DNA from: Octopus vulgaris
Lineage: Eukaryota
DNA length: 64,000 nucleotides
NCBI GenBank assembly: GCA_951406725.2
Contig: OX597815.1
Coordinates: 119,784,001 to 119,848,000 of the forward strand
Direction: 5' to 3'
Below the pieces are notes generated by a model, which saw nothing but the letters and a program-made list of their open reading frames with translations, made no database searches and had not been told where the DNA came from. Shown in pieces: positions 47,279-53,400 of this stretch. Position 1 is the stretch's first letter; every line of letters begins with the position of its first letter. A program made the translations under genes and the position numbers.

Positions 47279-47584
47279 ATATATGGAAAAAAAAGTCAAG
47301 GTAGAAAATGCTAAAATAATTTTATAAAAAACATTTCGGTACTGGTTTCAGTCATTGAGACTTTTTCAACTGTAAGTATGAATTATAATTAAATTTTGGA
47401 AAAATTAAAAGAAAAGTTTTTAAAAAGAAATTTAAAAACTTTTAAAAAACTTTTCTTTTCATTTTTCCAAAATTTAATTGTTATCCATACTTACAGTTGA
47501 AAAAGTCTCAATGATTGAAACCAGTACTGAAATATTTTTTATAAAATTACTTTACCATTTTCTACCTTGACTTTTTCCATATAT
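47279..47584. mobile_element. Fold-back pLTR-like element, each arm with a U3-A8 hammerhead motif
   Basis: Inverted arms of about 140 bp. A third copy of the arm is at 50724-50870. Confidence 0.85.
47494..47530 (+). ncRNA. Minimal hammerhead motif, U3-A8 core variant
   Basis: CAG UUGAAAA AGUC ucaau GAUU GAAA C CA GUA CUG. The opposite arm has a perfect AGUC/GACU stem II. Confidence 0.6.
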
Positions 47585-48562
47585 ACATATATATATATAT
47601 ATAATATATCATCATCAATATATATATACATACATACATACACATGCATACATATATATACATATACACATGTTTGTGTGTGTATGTGTGTGTATTTGTG
47701 TCTGTGTTTGCCCCCTGTGACAGCTTGACAACTGGTGTTGGTGTGTTTACATCACTGAGACATAGCAGTTTGGCAAAAGAGACTGATAGATTAAGTGCCA
47801 GACTAAAAGACAAAAAAAACAAAAAACAAGGTTCATTCGACTAACGGTTCTTTAAGTAAAAGATATAGGAATTTGAAAGGTACAGTGTTTGATTCTCTTT
47901 TACCATTTCCTAACTGTATTTACCTGCTTTTCTAATCTTTCTTCACTGCCATCCTGTCTGAGAATTACTTTATTTGCTGCAGAATACTGACTCACTTGGT
48001 GCTTATAAGTTTGTTTAGAATATGTGTGTGTGTGTGAAGGCATGTGGCTTAGTAGTTAGAGTGTTCAGCTTACGATCGTAAGGTCATGAGTTCAATTCAT
48101 AGGGACGCATTGTGTCCTCGAGCAAGACTCTTTATTTCACATTGTCCCAGTCCACTCAGCTGGCAAAAATGTGTAATACCTGTATTTCAAAGGGCCAGCC
48201 TTGTCACATCCTGCATCCTGCTGAGTCCATCTGAGAACTACATTAAGGGTACACATGTCTGTGGAGTGCTCAGCCACTTGCACGTTAATTTCACAAGCAG
48301 GCTGTTCCATTGATTGTATCAGCTGGGACCCTCGTCATTTTAACCAATGGAGTACTAAGGCCATATTTATATATATATATATATATATATATATATATAT
48401 ATATATATATATATATATATATATATATATATATATATATATATATATATATATATATATATAATATATATAGGGAGAGTTTACGAAAAAAACAAAAAAC
48501 GAAGACAGGTGGTGTATAAAACAAACAGATGTATTAGTATAACGCTCAGGAATAGAAAAGGT

Positions 48563-48598
48563 CTTTTACGTTTCGAGCCTACGCTCTTCTACAGAAAG
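48563..48598 (-). ncRNA. Minimal hammerhead motif, CUGUAGA core variant
   Basis: CUUU CUGUAGA A GAGC GUAG GCUC GAAA C GUA AAAG. Decayed family members at about 20674-20710 and 60185-60216. Confidence 0.55.
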
Positions 48599-48932
48599 GA
48601 ACACAGAAAAAAAACAAGGAGAGAAACGAGGAGAGAAAAAAAGGATCAATAACAATAAAGGGTAAAATTAATTAATCAATTAATAATTAATAATTTTACC
48701 AAGTAGTTCGGTATGTTAAAAGAACCGTTATCAGTAAAGTTATACAAAAATTCTATAATTATGCACATAATTATAATTAGGGTTCAGCAAAATTTGCTTC
48801 ACCACATACCGAAATTTAGAAATAGCAGTTAAAATACTATTCTACTACCATAAGATATCTCCCAGACAGCAATACTTAACAACTCATGCAGGTAAAGAGA
48901 AAAAAGTAACAAATCCACTCGGCTCTGATTAA

Positions 48933-49012
48933 CTGTATACGTGTTTCGGGGTTAGAGTGATGTAAAAATGTAAAATCATATTTCTACTCACTCATTCCCT
49001 TCGTCAGTACAG
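48933..49012 (-). ncRNA. Type I minimal hammerhead ribozyme motif
   Basis: CUGUA CUGACGA AGGG...CCCC GAAA C AC GUA UACAG. Confidence 0.8.
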
Positions 49013-49260: not shown

Positions 49261-49342
49261 CTGTACTGATGAAGGGAATGAGTGAGTAAAAATATGATTT
49301 TACATTTTTTTACATCTCTCTAACCCCGAAACGTGTATACAG
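49261..49342 (+). ncRNA. Type I minimal hammerhead ribozyme motif
   Basis: CUGUA CUGAUGA AGGG...CCCC GAAA C GU GUA UACAG. Confidence 0.8.
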
Positions 49343-49996
49343 TTAATCAGAGCTGAGTGGATTCATTATTTTTTCTCTTTACCTGCATGAGTTGTTGAGT
49401 ATTGCTGTCTGGGAGATATCTTATGGTAGTAGAATAGTATTTTAACTGCTATTTCTAAATTTTGGTATGTGGTGAAGCAAATTTTGCTGAACTCTAATTA
49501 TAATTATGCTTATAATTATAGAATTTATATATATATATATGGCTTCCCAGACCCGGTCAAACCGTCCAACCCGTGCTAGCGCGGAAAGCGGACGTTAAAC
49601 GATGATGATGATGATGATGATATATATATATATATATATATATATATATATATATATATATATATGAATGAAAGAAAGAAGAAATGTTTCCTTCATGAGC
49701 CATGCCAGGTTCATAAGGGCCTTCTTGAGCCATGCCAGGCTCATAAGGGTTTCCCAGTTTCAATGGCATACAAATTCCCCACCTGGATGGGATTACGTTC
49801 TATCGTCAGATTACTCAAATTTGCCAGCTGAGTGGACTAGAACAATAGGAAATGAAGTGTTTTGCTTAAGAACACAATGCATCACCCCGTCCAGGAAATG
49901 AAACCACAATCTTACAATCATGAGTCCAACACCCTAACCACTAAGCCATGTGCCTCCACACACACACACACATATGTATGTGTGTGTGTGTGTGTG

Positions 49997-50420
49997 CAGT
50001 AGAAATCACATTCATCATGTGTTGCATATCTTCCAAGGAATGTGCTAACAGGTCACAATCATCTGCATATAAGAACTCAATGATGTGAGAATGAAGAACT
50101 TTGATTTTGGCACAAAGTCTTTTAAGGTAGAAAAGTTTTGACACCGTCCTATATATCTTATATAGACCCCTTCAGCACAATCTTCATCTTCATGGCTATT
50201 TGAAAGACTATTGTAAAATGCAGAGCAAACGATGCAGGAGCAAGAATATCATCCTGTTTCACACTATTTTCTACAGAAATTGTATCTGATGGGATACTTC
50301 CAACATAAACCCTCACACCCATCCTGTCATGGAAATTGTTTAATCATTCTCACAAACTTTTCAGGGCAGCCCAGCTTTTCTAAAATCTCCCAAAGTGCTA
50401 CTCTATTTACAAAATCAAAC
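49997..50420 (-). mobile_element. RTE LINE reverse transcriptase fragment
   Basis: KLFYLKRLCAKIKVLHSHIIEFLYADDCDLLAHSLEDMQHMMN. Upstream remnants are ALWEILEKLGCPEKFVRMIKQFHD and VKQDDILAP. Confidence 0.85.
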
Positions 50421-53400
50421 TTGATACAAGTTCTCATCCTGTTCAATGTCTATATATATTACACAGACACACACATAAAAAGGCGGTTCCCCAGCAGAAA
50501 TGTTAGCATGCCAGGCAAAAAGCTTAGTGGTATTTCGTCTGTCTTTATGTTCTGAGTTCATATTCCGCCGAGGTCGACTTTGTCTTTCATCCTTTTGGGA
50601 TCTATATATTAAGTACCAGTTGCGTACTGATATCAATCTAATCGACTGGCCCCCTTCCCCAAAATTTCAGGCCTTGTGCCAGGAGTAGAAAAGTATATAT
50701 ATATATATATATATATATATATATATGGAAAAAAAGTCAAGATAGAAAATGCTAAAATAATTTTATAAAAAACATTTCAGTACTGGTTTTAGTCATTGAG
50801 ACTTTTTCAACTGTAAGTATGGAAAACAATTTAATTTTGGAAAAATTAAAAGTAAAGTTTTTTAAAAGAATATTATTTGCATAGTGTTCAAATACAAGAG
50901 GCATTTTCCTTGTTTCTACCTGTTTCTCTCTCTCTTGTTTACTCTTGTGGGCTTGAGGTCATTGTGAATTCTTGGTAGGGAATAATAATAATAATAATAA
51001 TTATAATAATAATAATAATAATAATAATAATAATAATAATAATGCGGGAGTGCCATGACAGTAGTATGTTGAATGGTCAACTGCCCTGAAAGTGACCTGC
51101 TGTGGATGGTAGTAATGATTGAGTTCCTGAAACATCTCTTTTGAATGTTTTGTTTATAAAATTTGCATAGATGTTATTCTATATATATATATATATATAT
51201 ATATATATATATATACCCTACTGGTCTACTGTTTATTAGAGGGATCAAGAATTACTCAAAGTATCTTCTTTCTTTTACTTGTTTCAGTCATTAGACTGCG
51301 GCCATGCTGGGGCACTCCCTTGAAGAATTTATATTCAAATGAATCAACCCTAGTACTTTCTCTTTTTCAAGCCTGGTACTTATTCTATTGATCTCTTTTG
51401 CTGAACTGCTAAGTTATAGGAATGTAAACACACCAATACCAGTTGTCAAGTGGTGGTGGGGGACAAACTCACACACACACACATACACACACACATGATG
51501 GTATTCTTTCATTTTCTGTCTATCAAATCCACTCACAAGGCTTTGGTTGGCTCAAGGCTATAGCAGAAGATACTTGCTAAAATTTCCACACAGTGGGATT
51601 GAACCAAGAACCATGTGGTTGGGAAGCTTCGTACCACACAGTCAAACCTTTGGCCAAATATATCACTCAATATATTTAGTATCAATTCACGTATGGTTTT
51701 AAAAAGTAAATGTGGGTTGTGACATCTAAGATTGTCTCAGTAGCCACTGTCAGATAGTCCGATGAAGGCTACTAAGATGAAATGTTGAAAGTAACACACA
51801 GGCACACACACACACACACAAACACACACACACACACACACACACACACACACACACACACACACATTAACATTATATATATATATATATATATATATAT
51901 ATATATATATATATATAAAGTCCCTCTTAAGACTATTGGCAACATGTAAACCAGTACAACCTGTCGCCTGGTCAGGCTGCTTGTGACTAAATTGGGGAGC
52001 CTGCTTGGTAAGGAAAGAGGTTTTCATTGGAAACCTGCAGGAAAAAAAGCAAAACCTGTCAAAGGACAGATGAATTTAGTAAAGTAAACAGCCTTCAAAT
52101 GACTGGGCATGAAAAATCCCTCGTCTTTGTTTAGACATTTCTCTAGAAGGAAAACTGCTGTAACACACACACACACGTGTGTGTGTGTGTGTGGTACACC
52201 TCTTCAATTTACCAGTTTTAGTCAAACAATCTAACCCATGGCAGTATGTAAAACAGACACTAAACGATGATGATGATGATGATATATATATATATATATA
52301 TATATATATATATATATATATATATATATAGAAAAGAAAGTAACTATATGAAAGCATTATTGCTGTTAAAAACAGTAATAATGAGGTGGTTAGCAAGACT
52401 TCTACCTTAATAGGTATAATATTAAATATTTGAATAAAAGAAGGGTAAAATACCACTTGCCAAAGATGAAAGTGAAAGCTTTGAAAACCACCAATCCCAC
52501 AATAAATACACACACAAGCAATGCAATGAAAACTTTAAAACTAGTCCTACCTTCAGGATGGAATTTGAAGATAGTTTACATACACCAATATCAATTAATT
52601 TCATGCTGTGTTTGAGAAAACATGCTTTGCAATTTTCAGTTGGAGATAGCAGCATCTATTTCCAAAATATTCACTACGTCAACTCATGTGCATTTCAAAC
52701 TTTAAACTTACTTGGAAATGGATGTGTGGCATTCAGTCAAATAATAATATAAATAATATATATATGTGCATACATATAAGTATATGTACACATGTGCACA
52801 TGAGTACAGGACGTGACAAACCAGAAACAGCATGAAATATGGAAACAAAGGAGTTGAATACATAAACGGGAGAAACAAATAGAAAACAGGACAAGTAACA
52901 TAAAAAGTGACCCTTCATCAGTTGTCGGTTGTCCATCTACTCCTCATTTCAAGCATTGAATCACACACATACACACACACACATACATATACTCTTTTAT
53001 TTGTTTCAGTTATTTGACTGTGGCCATGCTGGAGCACCGCCTTTAGTCGACCAAATCAACCCCAGGACTTATTTTTTGTAAGCCTAGTACTTATTCTATT
53101 GGTCTCTTTTGCTGAACTGCTAAGTTACAGGAGACGTAAACACACCAGCACCAATGTTGGGGCGGGGAGGGGACAAACATAGACACACGAACATATATAT
53201 ATATATATATATATATATATATATATACCAGCCACCCCTCTCCATGCCACTGATGTTATCCAAGGGAAAACCACAGGCTGATATAGCTTGGCACCAGTGA
53301 TATCACGACTCATTTCTACAAGTCAGTGAACTGGAGCAACATGAAATAAAGAGTCTTGCTTAAGAACACAACACACAGCTCAGTCCAGGAATCGAATTCA

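Follow-up and report, generated by a model that had tools for sequence, protein, structure and literature searches.

A U3-A8 hammerhead motif in the terminal repeats of a Penelope-like retroelement family of Octopus vulgaris

A 64,000-nt stretch of the Octopus vulgaris genome (GenBank assembly GCA_951406725.2, contig OX597815.1, positions 119,784,001 to 119,848,000), hereafter the window, contains three short hammerhead motifs with the core UUGAAAA, in which a U3-A8 pair occupies the place of the C3-G8 pair of CUGANGA. By its sequence context, the motif is the hammerhead of the pseudo-long terminal repeats (pLTRs) of a Penelope-like retroelement (PLE), and the window copies are fragments of the 3′ ends of such elements. 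The genome-wide comparison supported U3-A8 as a family-level state and not decay, as a preliminary description of the window had proposed. The argument given there, that both positions had changed together in all copies, was weak: the copies share ancestry, and a single insertion accounts for two of them as its arms. The variant is likely functional in the family, with cleavage as a prediction.

The window lies in a microsatellite-rich genome of 2.8 Gb (G000 in the locus names below). A segment made of helix II and GAAAC(C/R)GUAC had 806 exact matches in this genome, and the reversed control had none. Among the first 30 of these loci, chosen regardless of the core, TTGAAAA stood in register in 25 and CTGANGA in none; the other five had point changes or had lost one base. 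Genome-wide, U3 was found in 645 of the 676 in-register copies, and the remaining 130 of the 806 matches fit neither the U3 nor the non-U3 pattern. The 31 non-U3 copies consisted of 15 C3-A8, 11 A3-A8, three G3-A8, one G3-G8 and one C3-G8. The first 100 U3 copies listed included 98 with U3-A8 and two with U3-G8. The family consensus was not CUGAAGA, a core present in a single one of the 676 in-register copies, and decay from it was rejected. When 25 loci were chosen by their reverse transcriptase (RT) region, a sense motif was found downstream in ten (nine TTGAAAA, one CTGAAAA), one had an inverted motif upstream, and 14 had none within reach. A young subfamily, reached through a search with the N-terminal region, open reading frame (ORF) 1, and thus independently of the motif, gave 1,988 matches (control 0). 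Of its first 100 matches listed, 99 had U3-A8 and 99 had the helix III palindrome CCGG. The first 100 listed copies of the older subfamily had CCGG in 85 cases and CCAG in 15, so that the "C CA G" helix III of the preliminary description was right for the window copies and wrong as a family state.

The family copies had a constant 3′ end within microsatellites and a variable 5′ extent, and the longer ones extended into RT, cysteine linker and GIY-YIG. The young subfamily formed tandem arrays of ~4.4-kb units, up to 99.9% identical, with intact ORF1 (446 aa) and ORF2 (784 aa). Near-identical full-length arrays with intact ORFs were located at G000:C9:10.67-10.69 Mb, C9:55.71-55.72 Mb and C2:45.34-45.35 Mb, which suggests recent element activity. 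ORF2 carried RT together with GIY-YIG at its C-terminus in a single frame, as in endonuclease-positive PLEs (RVT_1, E 3.5e-8; GIY-YIG, E 3.8e-4, 21.1 bits against a cut-off of 22.6). ORF1, upstream of ORF2 and overlapping it, had no Pfam match. Pfam matched one of four decayed element fragments. In full-length elements, the motif was placed ~125 nt 5′ of the ORF1 start and ~700 nt 3′ of the ORF2 stop. Sense motifs were spaced 4.2-5.3 kb around the ORFs, one per unit end (both pLTRs), in six of six long loci. At L128:3262-3325, the overlap of the two ORFs, which are read in different frames, surrounds a T-run matching the -1 slippery pattern; no stable stem was predicted downstream of this candidate (-0.2 kcal/mol). 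The young element was covered by contigs from four runs guessed to be RNA; these showed neither joints nor pile-ups of starts or ends, and were uninformative for expression, splicing and cleavage.

Between the older (30 copies) and young (20 copies) subfamilies, the majority letter was the same in all 23 columns of the core and helix I and differed in 33 of 171 flank columns (19%). From older to young, helix II showed a compensatory change of A-U to G-C, plus two extra loop nucleotides. The 9/10.1 gap held no extra nucleotide, and pair 10.1-11.1 was G-C in the young and A-U in the older subfamily. The family had the Watson-Crick 3-8 pair, U4 G5 A6, A9, G12 A13 A14, A15.1-U16.1 and H17 of a type I core, paired helices I and II with covariation, and the palindromic helix III of PLE minimal hammerhead ribozymes (min-HHR).

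A genome-wide search was made with a general pattern in which helix III was fixed and helices I and II were unconstrained, with a control for each class. U3-A8 with N7 other than A gave 4,358 matches (control 129), and C3-G8 with any N7 gave 267 (control 280). The mismatched classes were C3-A8, with 204 matches (control 76), and U3-G8, with 119 (control 143). A frequent 28-nt repeat on many chromosomes, starting with CTGATAA, ending with GAAACCGGTC and lacking helix II, is probably unrelated and inflates the C3-A8 count. Motifs with a long helix II or another type of helix III fall outside the pattern, among them the three C3-G8 motifs of the window; we therefore give no overall core ratio for the genome and do not claim that U3-A8 dominates all hammerheads. 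Many unrelated families had U3-A8, each with helix I strands of its own that pair with each other. In 12 U3-A8 clusters built from 39 loci, helix I, left unconstrained by the search pattern, was at least 3 bp in 7/12, against 3.8% for mismatched families (p 5e-5). For helix II, the figures were 6/12 clusters against 2.3% (p 2e-4), a comparison biased by 11 of the 39 loci having been hand-picked for helix II diversity.

The same counts bear on how hammerheads are searched for. Searches restricted to CUGANGA would overlook at least 4,358 + 1,988 + 645 pattern matches in this genome, so that the earlier remark that such searches miss the variant applies to several thousand motifs.

All three UUGAAAA motifs of the preliminary description were present, with their ends corrected by one base (47529, 47372 and 50813). 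In each, helix II is 4 bp long and the site is GUA. The motifs and the fragments that carry them are as follows.

47494..47529, plus strand: hammerhead motif, copy 1; helix I CAG/CUG, core UUGAAAA (U3 at 47497), GAAA, helix II of 4 bp including one G·U, non-palindromic helix III, GUA site with N17 at 47526
47337..47372, minus strand: hammerhead motif, copy 2; core UUGAAAA, A·C mismatch disrupting helix I, non-palindromic helix III
50778..50813, minus strand: hammerhead motif, copy 3; core UUGAAAA, G12A (general base lost), non-palindromic helix III
47440..47585, plus strand: 5′-truncated pLTR fragment with copy 1; right arm of the inverted repeat, (TA)n end, 79-89% identity to full elements by blastn
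47243..47450, minus strand: 5′-truncated pLTR fragment with copy 2; left arm of the inverted repeat, (TA)n end, 85-89% identity by blastn
50719..51181, minus strand: longer 3′ untranslated region/pLTR fragment with copy 3; (TA)n on both sides, 78-87% identity by blastn

The three copies are likely inactive, 5′-truncated and decayed insertions in (TA)n, as judged from their sequences. Stems I and II, described earlier as paired, were so in copy 1; helix I of copy 2 (CAG/CCG) had predicted pair probabilities of at most 0.02. The loss of G12 noted for copy 3 was confirmed as G12A, and with it this copy departs from the type I core that copies 1 and 2 retain. The helix III palindrome was gone in all three, at a predicted self-duplex energy of -8.3 kcal/mol for the palindrome and +1.4 kcal/mol for the window variant. 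The CCAG of the window is likely the product of CpG decay of CCGG. We consider the copies probably dead because none keeps the palindrome and two carry further lesions, and because the sole same-strand pair (copies 2 and 3) combines two damaged copies. A generic hammerhead scan of the window with pairing requirements recovered copy 1 and missed the other two, because of the broken helix I in copy 2 and G12A in copy 3. In the Rfam scan, no hammerhead family was among the 150 of 171 matches listed (E up to 1). The matches were microsatellite and hairpin microRNA-model noise, and the MIR8565 match at 47352-47514 was the inverted repeat. A tblastn search of the window with the family ORF2 gave zero matches, and the fragments held no ORF remnant.

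Copies 1 and 2 lie in the two arms of a single inverted repeat of 138 nt, 93% complementary with 11 nt spacing, and are therefore not independent. A transcript spanning both was predicted to fold into a single hairpin (-167.7 kcal/mol) with the motif buried. The fragment with copy 2 has an additional tail of ~35 nt, at one end only. Reading the 300-bp palindrome as a miniature inverted-repeat or other DNA transposon was rejected: its arms consist of truncated pLTRs, and the majority of family copies stand alone. Of the older loci, 28 of 30 had no more than one motif match within 1.5 kb, and of the young loci 14 of 20; the remaining two and six were divergent pairs. The PLE pLTR context, the prior publication of U3-A8, the damage in each copy and the possible A17-U3 pair had escaped the preliminary description.

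The reading that we favour, with moderate confidence, is a minimal type I hammerhead in PLE pLTRs with a U3-A8 core, whose intact copies likely cleave slowly after GUA as a dimer. Two motifs would pair via the palindromic ACCGGU helix III, and U3-A8 would stand in for the C3-G8 tertiary pair. Slow, dimer-dependent cleavage after GUA would reduce transcripts that are tandem or read through to the length of one unit, in line with proposals for PLE hammerheads (PMC4209133, PMC6765202). A17 may compete for U3, trapping part of the RNA and lowering the rate; such pairing is possible because N17 is A. Cofolding yielded the dimer arrangement (young motif, -27.1 against 2 × -9.8 kcal/mol), and A17 occurred in U3 families (5/25 loci).

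Several points weigh against slow cleavage in intact copies. In young, older and copy 1 monomers, U3-A17 pairing was predicted at 0.71-0.74. The C3-G17 pair is the proposed cause of a loss of at least 300-fold in minimal hammerheads and of 8- to 100-fold in tertiary-stabilised ones (PMC3884650). By analogy, U3-A17 might act in the same way; A17 is not mentioned in the available part of that paper. Metazoan minimal hammerheads in the literature showed no activity as monomers and weak activity as dimers (PMC4209133). At only 3 bp, helix I is short, and the older subfamily has A10.1-U11.1 instead of the conserved G-C. A sister family (ORF 72% identical) has a 2-bp helix I and GCAA replacing GAAA in 25/25 loci, which were the top matches to a GCAA query and hence biased. 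No strict first pair of helix II is present in the two biggest of the other clusters (17 and 4 loci). In the retrozyme-like repeat described below, a subfamily with a C3·A8 mismatch has itself spread, and amplification is therefore possible without an intact 3-8 pair. Within the family, covariation was weak on its own: one two-sided pair, matched by 61 of 500 shuffles, among seven distinct rows. On the side of the host element, the GIY-YIG match stays below the Pfam cut-off.

Part of this evidence would also suit a motif that is hammerhead-derived and catalytically negligible, kept as a pLTR cis-element (for RNA dimerisation through the palindrome, or for binding of RT or ORF1 protein) and locked by U3-A17. 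We regard this as possible, though unlikely. It agrees with the predicted U3-A17 pairing, the short helix I, the A13C sister family with its 2-bp helix I and the spread of the C3·A8 subfamily. Craig et al. described highly successful Naiads without canonical hammerheads and suggested that the motifs may merely parasitize PLEs (PMC8557442), and Cervera & De la Peña left a non-cleaving role open (PMC4209133). Against it, G5, A6, A9, G12, A13, A14, A15.1 and U16.1 were constant between the subfamilies despite the 19% flank difference. The mismatched 3-8 classes were also rare next to U3-A8 at fixed helix III, a pattern consistent with selection for the active fold's tertiary pair.

We hold a splice switch, as in Drosophila virilis Penelope, to be quite improbable. 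An intron would end at the CAG just before the core, so that spliced RNA would have another strand on the 5′ side of helix I and splicing would switch the ribozyme. U3 is preceded by a U-rich tract and CAG, and the D. virilis case is a precedent (PMC4209133). However, the U-rich 5′ flank belongs to the published consensus (PMC4209133 supplement), and no strong donor was found within 320 nt upstream (best 3/7 in five of six copies, 4/7 in one). The donor candidates were not conserved between subfamilies, and in 107 of 123 motif matches, a count in which overlapping loci enter repeatedly, CUG already has the genomic CAG as its partner. Least probable of all is that U3-A8 came about in a dead master copy through neutral drift towards AT and was spread by amplification, with the RNA fold unselected: this would agree with an AT-rich genome (window GC 27-42%), frequent C-to-T and G-to-A changes and the decayed window copies, but U3-A8 was kept in the youngest, ORF-intact subfamily and in many unrelated families with their own pairing helix I, helix II changed in a compensatory manner, and the cross-family helix I pairing (p 5e-5) largely refutes it.

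A retrozyme-like family of ~360-nt tandem repeats was found elsewhere in the genome (L206, L211-L217, L222, L228-L232 and L234; for example G000:C1:20002278-20004542 and C4:80857199-80857949). It carries a canonical hammerhead, and its homologues, 84-99% identical, were in three core states: U3-A8 (L206, L231, L232), C3·A8 (L228-L230, L234) and C3-G8 (L211, L217, L222). In a 14-row tree with midpoint root, the C3 rows formed one clade (97/97) among U3-A8 rows, which splits into C·A (95/93) and C-G (96/91). With distant U3-A8 rows as the outgroup, the simplest order suggested runs from U-A through C·A to C-G, the mismatch state having multiplied on several chromosomes.

More speculatively, and well short of the confidence placed in slow cleavage by the family's intact copies, U3-A8 might be the ancestral, selected core of the genome's PLE and retrozyme hammerhead radiation. 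GUA families would then be self-throttled by competition of A17 with A8 for U3, and one retrozyme-like lineage would be reverting from U-A via C·A to C-G, with amplification of the mismatch. If true, this reversion would be a natural series for measuring how much cleavage elements need. The young, ORF-intact U3-A8/GUA element and the U-A, C·A, C-G series make it testable whether Penelope hammerheads must cleave for spread or just ride along.

Other hammerhead families and repeats were seen in the genome and in the window. The young sister PLE family (L158-L182, for example G000:C6:75405199-75405459) has U3-A8 and copies 95-98% identical; besides GCAA for GAAA and the 2-bp helix I, its 4-bp helix II is wholly different. 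Abundant U3-A8 families at L183-L207 (G000:C1) have a helix I of 6-7 bp and no standard first helix II pair. RT/endonuclease fragments were linked to two loci of this cluster and to one other locus. A second hammerhead family in the window is located at 49266-49337 (plus) and 48938-49007 (minus), in another inverted repeat with arms 48741-48968 and 49307-49533; its cores are the canonical CUGAUGA/CUGACGA, its helix I has 6 bp and its helix II an insert of 55 nt. A C3-G8 motif at 61837-61910 (plus) combines a helix I of 6 bp and a helix II base of 7 bp with a GUC site. A Penelope-like pLTR piece at ~48555-48595 (minus) has a hammerhead-like motif with a UAGAAGA core, as judged by eye; similar pieces flank other loci. 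The segments 48020-48177 and 49810-49973 are an inverted pair of one repeat, which we take to be of a tRNA-type short interspersed element (SINE)-like kind. Presumably, 50480-50690 is a SINE-like piece and 50100-50440 a minus-strand fragment resembling the RT of a long interspersed element (LINE).

Natural covariation from C3-G8 to U3-A8 was reported in several examples, active in vitro, by Perreault et al. 2011 (PMC3088659). The compensatory pair is the same here, fixed in high-copy retroelement families and not a rare variant. About 1,300 U3-A8 motifs were reported in Schistosoma mansoni PLEs (Cervera & De la Peña 2014, PMC4209133), and row S. mansoni(4) of that supplement gives a UUGAAAA core in a PLE. 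With the metazoan PLE min-HHR of the same paper, the octopus family shares type I topology, pLTR location, short helix I, palindromic helix III, U-rich 5′ flank, numerous solo truncated copies and close opposite-strand pairs. As in Neptune/Nematis-type PLEs (PMC8557442), the order is RT-linker-GIY-YIG, with C-x4-C-x2-C in ORF2 fitting their CX2-5CxxC linker. The two also have in common partial tandems, truncated copies in inverted orientation, a tail on one side and (TA)n targets. This resemblance comes from architecture and not from an RT tree, and does not distinguish Neptune from Nematis; the upstream, overlapping 446-aa ORF1 is a difference from the published description. The ~360-nt tandem repeats fit non-LTR retrozymes (PMC7229834; bioRxiv 10.64898/2026.07.22.740005); the window copies differ from such units, being pLTR fragments of an autonomous element. 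Literature searches, with subscription papers outside their coverage, found no title on hammerhead motifs of this genome. The U3-A8 core is already published, including for PLEs, and the octopus family is a known kind in a new host.

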